A stretch of DNA of 64,000 nt from an uncultured candidate division Zixibacteria bacterium (GTDB taxonomy: Bacteria; Zixibacteria; MSB-5A5; UBA10806; 4484-95). Below the pieces are notes generated by a model that saw nothing but the letters and a program-made list of their open reading frames with translations, made no database searches and was not told the DNA's origin. A program made the position numbers and the translations under genes. This document shows positions 20,683 to 26,159 of this stretch, piece by piece. The stretch covers positions 608,001-672,000 of the forward strand of contig CAXXKA010000006.1 of NCBI GenBank assembly GCA_963668625.2. Reading direction: 5' to 3'. Within the stretch, counting starts at the first letter, position 1, and each line of letters starts with the position of its first letter.

Positions 20683-22392
20683 ATGAAAGATGTATCAAAA
20701 CTTGTAATTTTAATTCTATTAGCTAATACATTAGCGGTTTGCCAAGCTCCAGATTTACTGCTTGGATGGCCATACCGATGTGAAACTGGTTTAGGCTCTG
20801 TGGTAGTTACACCCAGGTTTGCAGAGCAAGATTCATTTGCGCTTTATTATAACAATCGTAATGGTGAAATCATTAAATTTCGCAGGGACAACTCATACTA
20901 TCCAAACTGGCCATTCGTAGAACCTGATGTTCCTTTTCTCCATACATCGATTTTGGCCGATGTTGATAATGATAGTATACAGGAGTTTATAGTCAATTCA
21001 TCTGATTATTTATTCATAGTTGATGATACGGGCGAATTATTATTCAACAGCCCCTACTACCTTGAAAATACATCCTCGGTTTCAATGGCAGATTATGACT
21101 CGGATGGAGAGTATGAGTTTATATGTTTTTCTCGTCAGCAACGAGAGATATATTGTACAGATATATATGGAAATAGTCAGGCAGGTTGGCCAGTGACGCT
21201 GCCAGAGGATGCATGGATTTCTATAGATGGAGCCGGTTCAATCGGTGATTTGGATGATGACGGCTATTTGGAAATAGTGATTCGCGGCTTTGATAATATC
21301 TATGCATATCGTTGTAACGGAGAGATGCAACCTGGTTTTCCTATTGAAATTATTGATACGGTATATAGCTACCTGGATTGGCATGGGCCATCTTTAGCCG
21401 ATCTTGATAACGATGGCAAATTGGAGATAATTACCGCCGCATGTACTCAAGTTGATTTGCCTTGCAGTTCATATATAGCGATTTATTGTTATGACGGCAG
21501 TCTTATGGAAAACTGGCCTAAATATTATAACGATAATACTCAAATTTTTCAGGTTCCCACCGTTGCTGATATTAATAATGATGGTCTATTGGAAATAGGT
21601 TTTACATTAGCTAATGAAAATGAAGGGGGGTTGTACTTTCTTGACATATACGGAGATATTTTGCCCGGTTGGCCTTCATATATTGTAGATACTACAGGAT
21701 GGCCGGTTATCTTCGAGTCTGATATAATCGTAGTTGATATTGATGGCGACAACGATTGCGAGATTTTTGGAGATTTTAATGTTGCTTTTCCTGATAGCAG
21801 TGGGCATGGATACTACAGTAAACTGTTTGGCTTAGATCATTTGGGGAATTTATTAAGCGGTTTTCCTATAATCGTTGAAGATGTTTCACTGTCTACACCT
21901 CCATCATTTCACCTCGATTCTAATTATAGAATGTTAATGGGGCTAAACTCTGCACATTATTATGTTGAGCAAGAAATAGACTCAGTATTTGTTGAGGTCT
22001 TCCAATTCCCCGATTCCACCGGCCCGCCTGACCAATGGCCGATGCAGGGGCATGATAATTTGATGACGCGTAATTACAATTTCGTAGATCGTGTCACCGC
22101 TATCCGGGATGATGAGCAACCGCTGCCTAAAAGCTATATCCTGACTCAGAACTACCCCAACCCGTTCAATGCCGCTACCACGATTGATTTCGCGCTGCCC
22201 AAACCCGAGCATGTCACGATTACGGTATACGATATCCTCGGCCGCAGGGTAGAGGCGCTGGTGGATGAGACATTACCGGCGGGTAACCATCAGGCGCTAT
22301 GGCAGGCTGATGATTACGCCTCGGGGATGTATTTTTATCGCATGGAGGCGGGGGATTTGACGCTGAGCCGGAAGATGTTGCTGATTAAGTAA
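20683..22392 (+). CDS. Secreted FG-GAP-like repeat protein with T9SS-type CTD, unit 2
   Basis: Same architecture as unit 1; last 132 aa differ from unit 1 at 6 positions. Confidence 0.88.
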   Translation: MKDVSKLVILILLANTLAVCQAPDLLLGWPYRCETGLGSVVVTPRFAEQDSFALYYNNRNGEIIKFRRDNSYYPNWPFVEPDVPFLHTSILADVDNDSIQEFIVNSSDYLFIVDDTGELLFNSPYYLENTSSVSMADYDSDGEYEFICFSRQQREIYCTDIYGNSQAGWPVTLPEDAWISIDGAGSIGDLDDDGYLEIVIRGFDNIYAYRCNGEMQPGFPIEIIDTVYSYLDWHGPSLADLDNDGKLEIITAACTQVDLPCSSYIAIYCYDGSLMENWPKYYNDNTQIFQVPTVADINNDGLLEIGFTLANENEGGLYFLDIYGDILPGWPSYIVDTTGWPVIFESDIIVVDIDGDNDCEIFGDFNVAFPDSSGHGYYSKLFGLDHLGNLLSGFPIIVEDVSLSTPPSFHLDSNYRMLMGLNSAHYYVEQEIDSVFVEVFQFPDSTGPPDQWPMQGHDNLMTRNYNFVDRVTAIRDDEQPLPKSYILTQNYPNPFNAATTIDFALPKPEHVTITVYDILGRRVEALVDETLPAGNHQALWQADDYASGMYFYRMEAGDLTLSRKMLLIK

Positions 22393-23081: not shown

Positions 23082-23109
23082 ATGCCGCCGGTATTATTAC
23101 CGGCGGCAT
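23082..23109 (+). other. Intergenic hairpin, unit 3
   Basis: ATGCCGCCGGTA-TTAT-TACCGGCGGCAT, perfect 12-bp stem. Confidence 0.8.
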
Positions 23110-23144
23110 TATTACAAATATGTAAGGAGATGGTACGATAAAAG

Positions 23145-23345
23145 CATCTTGCTAATCTATTCTGTTGGTGTTAGAGCTTCGGTAATGAATTTCTAACTGG
23201 AGCGGATAGGTTATAGGCTGAACTGAATGCTTGAGGCCAGACCTCGTAAAGGAGATTAATCAGACCTGTAACCGAATTGCCACCATAAGGCAAAGACCTT
23301 GAATAGGAGTTTGGTAGGCGCCGACAGAGAGTCTGCTCCAGTGAT
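23145..23345 (+). ncRNA. Putative IS110 bridge RNA in the left non-coding end
   Basis: Stems 23196-23207/23331-23342 and 23209-23221/23260-23273; loop segments match target (AAAGGAG, AACT) and donor (ATAGGAG, ACCAT); ends approximate. Confidence 0.7.
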
Positions 23346-23367
23346 AACCATAGAATGGAGCAAGAAG

Positions 23368-24381
23368 ATGAGGTACTTAGGAGTAGACCTTCACACAAAC
23401 AGTTTGACCGTGTGTTACCTGACAGCCGGTGGTCGGGAGAGGATCAAGGAGTATCGGCTAAAGGATCTAAAGGAATTTAAACGAGGATTAAAAAAGACGG
23501 ATTGTGTAGCGGTTGAGGCCACTGGCAACACTCGTTATTTCGTTGATGAGATATCGCATTTGGTCAAGCGAGTTGTTGTCGTCGATCCGAACAAATTTGA
23601 GATAATCAAATCATCAGTCAGTAAGACGGATGAAAACGATGCCAGGAACTTAGCCTATTTTATGAGCAAAGACATGTTGCCGAAAGCCCGATTAAAGACG
23701 AAAGATAAAGCGCAGATCAGTTCACTTGTTGGGACACGGGACAAGCTGGTCAAGTTACGTACAGCTTTGAAGAATAAAATACACAACATACTCAATCATC
23801 ATGGTATCAAGAGTAAAAAGGAGGCCTACTCCAGCAACAAGAGTTTGGAGCGGGTTCTAAAGATGAATTTTGATGAGGTTGTTTCTGTTGAGCTTGAGGT
23901 ATTGGTTGATCAGATTCGCAGTTTGAATGAGGGGATAAAAAAGCTGGACAAACAGATAGAGGATCAGGGTCGCAAGTTGAACGGGCATAAGAACCTGACC
24001 AGCATCAAAGGAATCGGCAGCAAATCAGCTACAGTGTTGCTTTCGGTAATTGGTGATGTTGCTGATTTTTCGGACAAAGATAAATTGGCCTCATATTTTG
24101 GCGTAGTGCCGCGAGTTTCCAATTCAAACGAGATTCAGCATCATGGTCGGATTACCAAGCGTGGTTCTAAGATTGGTCGGACTACACTGGTGCAGTGTAC
24201 GCTTGTTGCCATACGATATAACCATTACTTGAGTAAATATTACAATCGTATAAAAAACCGTCGTGGCAGCGGTAAGGCTATCATTGCCACAGCCAGAAAA
24301 TTACTGGGAATAATCTATGACACCTTGAAAAATAATTGGGTGTTTGAAGATTTCCCTAACTTTGTGTTAGCAAACAGATAA
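23368..24381 (+). CDS. IS110-family DEDD recombinase/transposase
   Basis: YLGVDLH, VAVEATG, KTDENDA (DEDD); SIKGIG, YFGVVP..SNS....GRITKRG, KAIIATARKL; start moved to ATG 23368. Confidence 0.95.
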   Translation: MRYLGVDLHTNSLTVCYLTAGGRERIKEYRLKDLKEFKRGLKKTDCVAVEATGNTRYFVDEISHLVKRVVVVDPNKFEIIKSSVSKTDENDARNLAYFMSKDMLPKARLKTKDKAQISSLVGTRDKLVKLRTALKNKIHNILNHHGIKSKKEAYSSNKSLERVLKMNFDEVVSVELEVLVDQIRSLNEGIKKLDKQIEDQGRKLNGHKNLTSIKGIGSKSATVLLSVIGDVADFSDKDKLASYFGVVPRVSNSNEIQHHGRITKRGSKIGRTTLVQCTLVAIRYNHYLSKYYNRIKNRRGSGKAIIATARKLLGIIYDTLKNNWVFEDFPNFVLANR

Positions 24382-24419
24382 CTGAAATTTGGAGTAGACT
24401 TTTATCATAGGAGAGTTTT

Positions 24420-26159
24420 ATGAATAGAATAATATTATTGGCCGTGTTGCTGTTTATATTCAGCTTCTCGGATTCATTCTCTCAGGTGCCTGAACTTCTA
24501 GATGGCTGGCCTTATAGCCGTTTGCTAACCTCATACGCCGAACAAAACATTCCGCGGTTTGCATGCGATGCTGATTTAGCGATATTTTACAGCACGCCCT
24601 CAGGCGATAATAATAAATTCCACATGAATGGCTCCTATTACAACGGTTGGCCTGTCTACGAGGATGAAGTTCATATACACGGAAGAATAACGATTGTGGA
24701 TTTGGATCACGATGGTAAGGATGAGTTGGTGGCAAACGGTTATTTCGTTAGTGATATTCCTGCCAGAGTTCTTAATAAACTATATATCATAGATGATGAC
24801 GGCACGATCTTTCCCGATTTTCCAATTATATACAGCACCATAATTTGTCCGAATGTAGCCGATTTCGATGCTGACGGCGAATATGAATTGATATTTTACG
24901 ATGACGAAGTAGAATTAATCTATTGCATCGACAGGTTCGGTAATCCTGAACCGGGCTGGCCGGTGGATTTACCTGATGATATTTATCACCAGTCCGTGAA
25001 CGGTGGTGCTGCGGTTGGTGACCTTGATCTTGATGGATTCTTAGAGTATATAGTTAAAAGTAATGACTGTGTTTATGCCTTTCGCTATGATGGGACAATG
25101 ATCGAGGATTTCCTTATAAAAACCATTGAATATCCTTATTTTTTCGAGGCTCATAACGCTGTTACTCTTGGTGATGTTGATTTTGATGGGTATCTGGAGA
25201 TAGTTTTATCGGCACAGAGAGTCACGCTGGATTCCATCGCGAGTTATGTTGCGATTTACGAACATACCGGAGAGCCAAAGGAGGGCTGGCCGATCATGTT
25301 CCCCGATGCTTATGATTGGAATATGCCGACGATCGCGGATATCAATTCTGATGGTATCCCCGAAATAGGCTTTTCAATGGATGTATATACTTATTTTGTT
25401 GATGTTGATGGCAATCCTCTTGATGGTTGGCCGGTAGAATTTTATAAGCCGGATGGCCGGCCAAGAATGCCGATGTCGGATATAATAGCCGTTGATGTAG
25501 ATGGTGACAATGATTGTGAGATATTTTTCGATTTCAACACTCAGTACTGGGATCCTGAAAATGAAGATATTTACAGTTGTTTCTATGGCTCGGATCATCA
25601 CGGGCAAGATTTGCCCGGATATCCAGTGATTGTCGAAGGTTCCAGCGTGGGGTGTCCGCCAATTTTCCATTTTGACAGTTCTGATAATCAATATTATATG
25701 GCGCTTAGCACTCTGGTGGGATATCCCGATAGTATTTATACGATAGATTCGGTATATCTGGAGGTCTTCCAGTTTCCCGATTCCACCGGGCCGCCCGATC
25801 AATGGCCGATGCAGGGGCATGATAATTTGATGACGCGTAATTACAATTTCGTAGATCGTGTCACCGCTATCCGGGATGATGAGCAACCGCTGCCTAAAAG
25901 CTATATCCTGACTCAGAACTACCCCAACCCGTTCAATGCCGCTACCACGATTGATTTCGCGCTGCCCAAACCCGAGCATGTCACGATTACGGTATACGAT
26001 ATCCTCGGCCGCAGGGTAGAGGTGCTGGTGGATGAGACATTACCGGCGGGTAACCATCAGGCGCTATGGCAGGCTGATGATTACGCCTCGGGGATGTATT
26101 TTTATCGCATGGAGGCGGGTGATTTGACGCTGAGCCGGAAGATGTTGCTGATTAAGTAG
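24420..26159 (+). CDS. Secreted FG-GAP-like repeat protein with T9SS-type CTD, unit 3
   Basis: Same architecture; last 132 aa differ from unit 2 at 1 position. Confidence 0.88.
   Translation: MNRIILLAVLLFIFSFSDSFSQVPELLDGWPYSRLLTSYAEQNIPRFACDADLAIFYSTPSGDNNKFHMNGSYYNGWPVYEDEVHIHGRITIVDLDHDGKDELVANGYFVSDIPARVLNKLYIIDDDGTIFPDFPIIYSTIICPNVADFDADGEYELIFYDDEVELIYCIDRFGNPEPGWPVDLPDDIYHQSVNGGAAVGDLDLDGFLEYIVKSNDCVYAFRYDGTMIEDFLIKTIEYPYFFEAHNAVTLGDVDFDGYLEIVLSAQRVTLDSIASYVAIYEHTGEPKEGWPIMFPDAYDWNMPTIADINSDGIPEIGFSMDVYTYFVDVDGNPLDGWPVEFYKPDGRPRMPMSDIIAVDVDGDNDCEIFFDFNTQYWDPENEDIYSCFYGSDHHGQDLPGYPVIVEGSSVGCPPIFHFDSSDNQYYMALSTLVGYPDSIYTIDSVYLEVFQFPDSTGPPDQWPMQGHDNLMTRNYNFVDRVTAIRDDEQPLPKSYILTQNYPNPFNAATTIDFALPKPEHVTITVYDILGRRVEVLVDETLPAGNHQALWQADDYASGMYFYRMEAGDLTLSRKMLLIK

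Follow-up and report, generated by a model that had tools for sequence, protein, structure and literature searches.

What places an insertion sequence (IS) exactly between a ribosome-binding site (RBS) and a start codon, and what becomes of the gene behind it? The question is raised by a locus in a 64,000-nucleotide stretch of an uncultured candidate division Zixibacteria bacterium (contig CAXXKA010000006.1, positions 608,001 to 672,000; hereafter the window), where an IS110-family element lies directly behind a Shine-Dalgarno (SD) sequence. Bridge and seek RNAs, the guides of such elements, have been known since 2024, and the range of their natural targets remains poorly charted. Here, we read the locus as an active or recently active IS110 element whose left end encodes a two-loop RNA, whose target guide spells an SD sequence, which recombines at an AG core, and which rebuilds the SD sequence at its other end; we give this reading a probability of about 85%. 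A sequence-only reading of the window had already proposed a bridge RNA programmed for an SD sequence; that observation is real and its central interpretation is confirmed, with partial support in detail. The evidence for expression and activity of the element is computational entirely.

The element occupies positions 23130-24413 on the + strand (1,284 bp) and consists of a 238-nt non-coding left end, one open reading frame (ORF), and a 32-nt right end, with the AG core shared by both junctions assigned to the right end. One long non-coding end (238 nt vs 32 nt) and no target duplication beyond a short core are what is seen in the IS110 family; AGGAG alone is common to the left flank and the right end of the window element. 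The boundaries and their surroundings are as follows.

23123-23129, + strand: left target half with the AG core, the host SD sequence TAAGGAG (from junction reading and copy comparison)
23129/23130: left junction, TGTAAGGAG / ATGGTAC
23130-23134, + strand: right donor half ATGGT, with which the element begins
23135-23144, + strand: left subterminal inverted repeat ACGATAAAAG, matching the reverse complement of 24399-24408 at 9 of 10 bases
23368-24381, + strand: DEDD/serine recombinase (transposase) of 337 amino acids (aa), from Pfam and NCBIfam profile matches
24399-24408, + strand: right subterminal inverted repeat CTTTTATCAT
24405-24413, + strand: left donor half with the AG core, TCATAGGAG, in which ATAGGAG (24407-24413) is the replacement SD sequence
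24413/24414: right junction, TCATAGGAG / AGTTTTATG
24414-26159, + strand: right target flank AGTTTT and the downstream gene (start 24420), which encodes 579 aa with FG-GAP repeats and a sorting domain of the type IX secretion system (T9SS)

The host genome (4.3 Mb in 10 contigs) has 11 full-length copies of the element, with 100% identity and the same ends throughout. AAGGAG stands directly to the left of all 11 (AAAGGAG in nine and TAAGGAG in two, the window copy among the latter), and an ATG that shares the strand of the transposase follows 5-7 nt to the right of the junction in every case; it opens an ORF of at least 116 aa in nine copies. All 11 copies are in the configuration in which the right end rebuilds an RBS, as the sequence-only reading had proposed. 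The first four right-flank bases vary among the copies and the right flank is different in all 11, so that comparing the flanks bore out AAGGAG before start codons as the target, whereas the AGTT that had been taken as its other half turned out to be specific to the window copy. A T at +1 is found in 9/11 copies, as compared to 19-20% of background SD sites (binomial p ~2e-5 by our own arithmetic). There are 851 unoccupied (A/T)AAGGAG sites in the genome, of which 279 (33%) are in an SD-like context, defined as 4-9 nt before the start codon of an ORF of at least 60 aa; against this background, the presence of 11 out of 11 copies in an SD context has p ~5e-6, again by our arithmetic. In a public sequencing run from the same organism (run X2), the element forms its own contig of 1,290 nt at a depth of 49, while its flanks have depths of 7.9 and 9.25, which fits a multi-copy repeat.

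The ORF matches DEDD_Tnp_IS110 (PF01548) with 49.4 bits (cut-off 29), Transposase_20 (PF02371) with 78.4 bits (cut-off 21.3), and the NCBIfam equivalog NF033542, “IS110 family RNA-guided transposase”, with 242.7 bits (cut-off 140). In an alignment of 30 sequences, D7, E50, D88, and D91 are invariant, as befits an N-terminal RuvC-like DEDD domain, and S251, S253, and N254 are conserved, S251 and S253 being candidate counterparts of the catalytic S241 of IS621. The transposase is distantly similar to the solved recombinases of IS621 and ISCro4 (E ~1e-12), chiefly in the C-terminal half; it shares 26% identity with ISEc11 over 94% of its length (E 3e-15, a pairwise comparison) and 26% identity with IS4321 (E 7e-9). 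The sole close relative in a plasmid collection, on a Tardibacter plasmid, has 53% identity and is annotated as “IS110 family transposase”; no ISfinder name for the family was obtained from this collection.

Relatives of the transposase number in the thousands. Pattern scans yielded confirmed related stretches in genome contigs (255) and in metagenome contigs (472), with 80 loci kept per scan, and the named genome records are metagenome-assembled genomes (MAGs) and isolates labelled Planctomycetota, Acidobacteriota, Calditrichota, Rhizobiales, Ruegeria, and others. Nearly all of these relatives end in CAT(A/G)GGAG, begin with A(T/C)GG(T/C)A(T/C)GA, and come after an xAAGGAG-like motif; an ATG lies 5-8 nt after the junction in 87 of the 116 unique family sites for which both boundaries are known. 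The subterminal repeats match at a mean of 7.6 out of 10 bases over 102 end pairs, and all family members examined have the RNA upstream of the transposase gene.

The left end has a minimum free energy of -80.5 kcal/mol (z = -5.0), and none of 200 shuffled sequences folds as well. This agrees with the two similar stem-loops of the sequence-only reading, and their stems covary across relatives. The structure was modelled from 38 aligned left ends as an RNAalifold consensus, with one stem added by hand; 93.8% of its cells are paired, as compared to 85.4% in shuffles, both sides change in 18 of 30 pairs, and none of 500 shuffles reaches the observed values. In slid controls, the paired cells fell to 28-49%. 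A covariance model built from the same alignment gave 158 matches at E <= 0.001 in 161 loci, while an Rfam search of the left end returned no family, its lone match being osmY at a chance-level E of 0.99. The RNA model comprises two similar modules, each with an outer stem, an internal loop, and an inner hairpin, together with two crossing helices.

23160-23172, + strand: 5' strand of helix A, pairing with 23317-23329 (13 bp in the window element)
23317-23329, + strand: 3' strand of helix A
23199-23205, + strand: 5' strand of helix B, GGAGCGG, pairing with 23333-23339; helix B encloses both modules and crosses helix A
23333-23339, + strand: 3' strand of helix B, CUGCUCC
23209-23273, + strand: target-binding loop module (loop 1), with outer stem 23209-23221 / 23260-23273 and inner hairpin 23232-23246, from compensatory changes
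23286-23301, + strand: inner hairpin of the donor-binding loop (loop 2), with compensatory changes in 4/5 pairs and 99.5% of cells paired

Helix A includes the pairing between 23161-23170 and 23319-23328 that had been suspected from the window alone; it is supported by covariation, crosses the second covarying helix, and is kept in relatives with quite different sequences, with the longest helix averaging 8.0 bp when the two strands come from the same element and 5.9 bp in cross-pairs. Helix B has both-side changes in five of its seven pairs and 98.5% of its cells paired. The RNA is pseudoknotted if helices A and B form together, and covariation supports this pseudoknot, which the sequence-only reading had proposed as a possibility.

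A motif at 24391-24399 in the right end, GGAGTAGAC, resembles the helix-B strand GGAGCGGATAG (23199-23209) and is complementary, with one G.U pair, to GTCTGCTCC (23331-23339, the 3' strand of helix B and two further bases). It is found in the right end of most relatives, is absent from the Ruegeria and Calditrichota-type ones, and overlaps a candidate -35 hexamer described below. In transcripts that read through the element, this motif might compete for helix B; alternatively, it may represent a second protein or DNA site.

When k-mers of the left end were compared systematically with those of the circle junction and a target consensus, the longest matches outside the element's own terminus were two 7-mers, AAAGGAG (23248-23254) and ATAGGAG (23303-23309). 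Each is expected ~0.015 times in 240 nt (our arithmetic), and they are beyond chance because of this low expectation and their equivalent places in the two similar loops. The sequence-only reading had located both of them correctly, along with AACT (23221-23224), ACCAT (23282-23286), and the two junctions. The AACT 4-mer and the ACCAT 5-mer alone are not beyond chance; by our estimate, 240 nt would contain any given 4-mer such as AACT about once by chance, and ACCAT is present twice in the left end (23282 and 23347). The predicted guides and the strands around them are listed below.

23222-23231, + strand: 5' strand of loop 1, expected site of a top-strand (right-target) guide, including the last three bases of AACT
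23246-23254, + strand: left target guide GUAAAGGAG, 9 nt directly after the loop-1 hairpin, covarying with the left flank
23255-23256, + strand: AU extension after the left target guide, a possible handshake guide, matching the first two bases of the element
23279-23283, + strand: right donor guide GCCAC, pairing with the top strand of ATGGT (23130-23134) apart from a C x A mismatch at base 1, base 5 forming G.T
23301-23309, + strand: left donor guide GAAUAGGAG, in the same sense as the right end of the element

The left target guide follows the left flank across the family. Among 115 unique sites, the loop-1 guide agrees with the flank at 8/8 bases in 27, 7/8 in 70, 6/8 in 17, and 5/8 in one, and at the four variable guide positions the mean identity is 3.10, whereas 1000 shuffles of the flanks gave 2.38 +/- 0.06 and at most 2.58. 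Variant guides go with variant flanks, for example CAGGAG, TGAGGAG, GTGGAG, AGAGGAG, TTAGGAG, and AAGGAAG. Two relatives are retargeted, with flanks GATAACCAG and GATATCCAG that match their guides at 9/9 bases; their targets end in CCAG and their right ends in GGAG, so the core is AG, the only part common to both. The proposal that AAAGGAG guides the element to AAGGAG ribosome-binding sites is therefore upheld by the covariation over 115 sites as well as by the 11 host copies, and guide-target covariation had been named in advance as a check.

The two retargeted relatives (L059 and L081) are a Desulfobaccales and a Desulfuromonadaceae MAG contig. Their target, GATA(A/T)CCAG, is not an SD sequence, and the 5' strand of their loop 1 (GGAGAUAUG...) is also unlike that of the rest of the family, so that these two would be the most promising natural material in which to look for a top-strand guide.

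Loop 2 behaves in the same way toward the element's own ends. The relatives ending in CATGGGAG carry AUGGGAG and one ending in CATAGAAG carries AUAGAAG, the correspondences being TGG with TGG and GAAG with GAAG; ATAGGAG was thus rightly taken as a donor guide. On the other side, the fourth base of the element (RD4) goes with loop-2 RNA position -7 as G-C in 35/37, A-U in 7/8, and C-G in 2/2 cases, and the RNA base at -5 covaries with the second base of the element. These two covariations place the right donor guide at 23279-23283. Together with the profile matches of the transposase, loops that covary with target and donor substantiate the earlier assignment to the IS110 family with a bridge RNA. 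As for the AU extension, its second base is C at all 26 sites with an element that begins AC and T at 40 of the 79 sites with one that begins xT, and we tentatively regard the extension as a handshake guide as in IS621; a donor-loop extension compared with the right flank as a handshake guide gave no signal.

For a right-target guide, a scan of the loop-1 5' strand positions against flank positions +1 to +8 fixed no register. The best cell had z = 4.5 at site level; among 112 cells at element level the best had z = 3.0 and was T5[-6] (A23227) against flank +1. When the 11 occupied sites were compared with the 279 background SD sites, control positions scored like the candidate right-target positions. 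A CAU after GGCUG that could read the start codon was rejected as a candidate, C being at that position in only about a third of the elements. The evidence from covariation is strong for the predicted left target guide and for both predicted donor guides.

The placement of the copies could also arise in another way. The element might insert at any (A)AAGGAG(T), and the SD and sense pattern might come wholly from purifying selection against intragenic insertions, with no evolved targeting of the RBS. The short reach of the RNA guide, which spans just 7-9 bases, agrees with this, as do the 851 matching 7-mers that stand unoccupied, of which two-thirds lack an SD-like context, and the fact that no RNA position was found to read the spacer or the start codon. 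However, the guide sequence, the SD-restoring and near-identical right end, and the sense orientation are conserved across phyla, which argues that the RBS is the evolved target, and an ATG follows the junction by 5-8 nt at 87/116 family sites. We therefore hold selection as the sole cause to be rather doubtful, though it deserves serious weight. Selection and targeting are not mutually exclusive, and our preferred reading, RNA-guided targeting of SD sequences, already includes selection. The RNA would specify only ~7-8 bases to the left of the crossover and a T at +1. Roughly two-thirds of the matching sites lack an SD-like context, many of them presumably being intragenic, and the all-SD pattern of the surviving copies is probably the result of targeting combined with the disappearance of insertions from these sites.

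Alternatively, the target could be chosen by the recombinase or by some other DNA feature, with AAAGGAG and AUAGGAG kept for ribosome binding or for translational control of the transposase. Both loop motifs are SD-like and are found in RNA upstream of the transposase start, yet the loop-1 motif varies with the flank in at least eight ways, the two non-SD retargeted relatives at 9/9 among them, and the loop-2 motif varies with the right end. The motifs are also 114 and 59 nt upstream of the transposase ATG and thus not at RBS distance, while another GGAG, that of the transposase itself, precedes this ATG (23368) by 8 nt, so that this explanation appears very improbable.

The exact model of the sequence-only reading, in which AAGGAG/AGTT is read by AACT (23221-23224) and AAAGGAG and the donor by ACCAT (23282-23286) and ATAGGAG, is hardly credible in that form, for although all four motifs match perfectly or nearly in the window copy and ACCAU pairs with ATGGT at 5/5 bases, AACT matches 1, 1, 0, 0, 1, 4, 0, 2, 1, 2, and 2 of 4 bases over the 11 copies (0-2 in the ten others), which already refutes the right-target half, and where the fourth donor base is A or C the partner in the ACCAT register stays C (mismatched in 5/8 and 2/2 cases), whereas the base three upstream, in the register of GCCAC, switches to U or G.

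Several points weigh against our preferred reading of an RNA-guided, SD-targeting element. The covariation shuffles ignore kinship among the sequences, and at 18 of the 115 guide-flank sites there are at least two mismatches in eight; five further sites, with a left boundary that was found by pattern and does not end in AG, were left out, these boundaries being probably mis-set. Target recognition from two sides, in the manner of IS621, is only half shown, with a predicted guide for the left side. Production of the RNA and its binding by the recombinase are predicted from sequence, and no RNA sequencing run was listed as containing the locus. The ORF downstream is very short (34 and 39 aa) in two of the 11 copies. 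A GC-rich hairpin lies 16 nt upstream of the window copy, and read-through from a host promoter is thus not evident here. As to the site before insertion, the first 366 right-flank bases were found in none of 40 other genomes searched, six of which had weak partial matches within right-flank bases 367-487 only, and hence none of these relatives could reveal an empty site. Neither the circle junction nor the empty site was seen in the contigs of four sequencing runs; the joints listed in these contigs stem from related elements in metagenomes. Within the window, the reconstructed empty target has two matches, which is the chance level, and one of them is the right junction itself.

The mechanism that we propose is as follows. 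As sequence comparison shows, the 3' strands of both loops carry 9-nt guides with the top-strand sequence to the left of the crossover, which would pair with the bottom strand, GUAAAGGAG in loop 1 representing the left half of the target with the AG core and GAAUAGGAG in loop 2 the element's own right end with the same core. On the top strand, the element's five initial bases would pair with GCCAC from the 5' strand of loop 2. By homology with IS621 and ISEc11, the element would circularise, the complex of RNA and recombinase would pair with circle and target, and the DEDD/Ser recombinase would exchange the strands of the two at the AG core. Insertions would come directly after SD sequences because the target guide spells the SD consensus, and the downstream gene would regain an SD sequence at the same spacing because the right-end ATAGGAG differs from the target AAAGGAG by one base. 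After insertion, the host SD sequence would face the left end, ATAGGAG would stand in its former place, and the host gene could be translated provided that transcripts span the element. Since the orientation is always sense, host transcription could run through the bridge RNA and the transposase gene and then into the host gene; no terminator-like site was found inside the element on the + strand, and a promoter and terminator scan of the integrated copy was at chance level. A promoter of the element's own might be assembled at the circle junction.

24395-24400, + strand: candidate -35 hexamer TAGACT of the junction promoter (motif only)
23134-23139, + strand: candidate -10 hexamer TACGAT, family consensus (T/C)A(C/T)GAT, belonging to a promoter that would arise at the circle junction only (motif only)

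The circle junction would set TAGACT 17 nt from TACGAT, and both hexamers are conserved in the family, making this a modest sigma-70-like candidate.

The system is a variant of known RNA-guided transposons, not a new kind, and RBS-ATG targeting has precedent in IS900. As in IS621 and ISCro4 (Durrant 2024, PMC11208160; Hiraizumi 2024, PMC11208158), the recombinase has DEDD and Tnp domains, the gene is preceded by a long non-coding left end, target and donor each have one of two similar internal loops in the RNA, and a 9-nt bottom-strand guide made of the left half and a 2-nt core is accompanied by a shorter top-strand guide on the right. [quoted passage not shown] The core is AG here and CT in IS621, and unlike in IS621 two crossing covarying helices enclose the loops and no right-target guide was found in the loop-1 scan. 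Handshake guides are described for IS621 (PMC11208158). The IS110 group has subterminal inverted repeats of 2-3 bp, as compared to 10 nt here with a 9/10 match.

Other features are closer to the IS1111 group. In seekRNAs of the IS1111 type (ISEc11, ISKpn4, and ISPa11), the top-strand complement is 5' of the bottom-strand match (PMC11187229, Siddiquee 2024). The same order is present here in the donor loop, where GCCAC precedes AUAGGAG, and the 3' strand of the target loop holds the bottom-strand match. The sequence-only reading was thus right that the reverse-complement guide comes first, as far as the donor loop is concerned, but not that this makes a new architecture, since the order is already published for IS1111-type seekRNAs. 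Subterminal inverted repeats with 7-bp and 3-bp terminal extensions are likewise characteristic of the IS1111 group (PMC11187229); when the AG core is counted on the left, the extensions here are AGATGGT (7 bp) and AGG (3 bp), with repeats of 10 nt instead of the usual 11-13 nt. In contrast, nearly all IS1111 members have the RNA downstream of the transposase gene, ISMtsp17 being an upstream exception (PMC11187229), while here it is upstream as in the IS110 group and the right end has just 32 nt. The IS1111-type targets known from that source are REP, attC, transposon ends, and a short linear site, as compared to an RBS here. What is unusual is the combination of the IS1111-type guide order with an RNA upstream of the transposase gene.

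Insertion of IS900 between an RBS and an ATG is said to have been described by Doran in 1997 and by Bull in 2000. This IS110-family element of Mycobacterium avium subsp. paratuberculosis inserts in an orientation-specific manner at the target motif CATGNNNNNNTCTCCTT (PMC8141618). Compared by the published motif alone, CATGNNNNNNTCTCCTT is the reverse complement of AAGGAGA-N6-CATG, which is the interval from SD sequence to start codon. Unlike the element described here, IS900 reads the site on the opposite strand, so its transposase runs antisense to the gene that is targeted, and it is the antisense “hed” ORF that faces the host signals; a rebuilt SD sequence for the host gene is not described for IS900. 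Many structural variants of bridge RNAs have been reported (preprint 10.64898/2026.10.21.760802). In the literature searched for bridge RNA, seekRNA, IS110, or IS1111 together with SD or RBS, no RBS-programmed guide is described and the IS900 motif is the lone near match; the supplementary tables of Durrant 2024 and of the same preprint may list such targets. The excerpts of PMC7823733, PMC4607514, and PMC3832669 hold nothing on an RBS-programmed bridge RNA.

Combining these observations, we tentatively propose a broader reading, which we consider close to an even bet though somewhat short of it. The clade would be cosmopolitan (Planctomycetota, Acidobacteriota, Calditrichota, Alphaproteobacteria, and others) and would use the SD sequence as a universal landing pad with a defined orientation. 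Landing in sense between SD sequence and start codon, the element would borrow host transcription for its guide RNA and recombinase and hand the host gene a replacement SD sequence, and insertions would thus be nearly neutral. Its RNA would be a hybrid for which neither IS621 nor ISEc11 is a model, located upstream as in IS110, with the guide order and subterminal repeats of IS1111, and with crossing helices that lock the loops in a pseudoknot. As the target loop would rely almost wholly on one 9-nt guide, this would be a naturally “one-sided” bridge RNA.

The case offers a base-pairing mechanism for the insertion of some IS110-family elements between RBS and start codon, a pattern known since IS900, and reveals that RBS targeting is coupled in a widespread clade with a built-in replacement RBS, at what may be little cost to the host. 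For tool builders, the system offers a compact recombinase of 337 aa and an RNA with natural examples of reprogramming, an AG core, a guide order other than that of IS621, and a possible pseudoknot. For genome annotation, it accounts for 11 identical insertions in front of genes, and these may be silently co-transcribed.

The element in the window lies before the second of two paralogous genes (20683-22392 and 24420-26159), each of ~570 aa with FG-GAP repeats and a C-terminal Por_Secre_tail (type IX secretion sorting); the pair is apparently part of repeated “units”. The GC-rich hairpin mentioned above (23086-23108) is perfect, with GCCGCCGG, an 8-nt loop, and CCGGCGGC, and ends 16 nt before the targeted SD sequence. 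It comes after the stop codon of an upstream 132-aa ORF, is terminator-like with no clear T-run, and leaves scarcely any space for a promoter of the downstream FG-GAP gene.

Three observations concern individual relatives. An Acidobacteriaceae MAG contig (L085) has the left flank CTCATAGGAG, which resembles another family member's right end; a tandem insertion was ruled out, as there is no second recombinase gene upstream, and the flank is either a one-mismatch target or an orphan end. In many relatives, such as the Acidobacteriota loci L037-L047, the left end has ACGGC followed by ATGATGA, and the ATG 5 nt after the host SD sequence opens a short ORF within the left end. This ORF is not conserved, the codon being ACG in the window element, and ATGA is part of the subterminal repeat. 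A diverged relative on a wetland metagenome contig (run X5, record 13) has the right flank TTGATATG, with T at +1 and an ATG at +6, and is thus found in the same RBS context.

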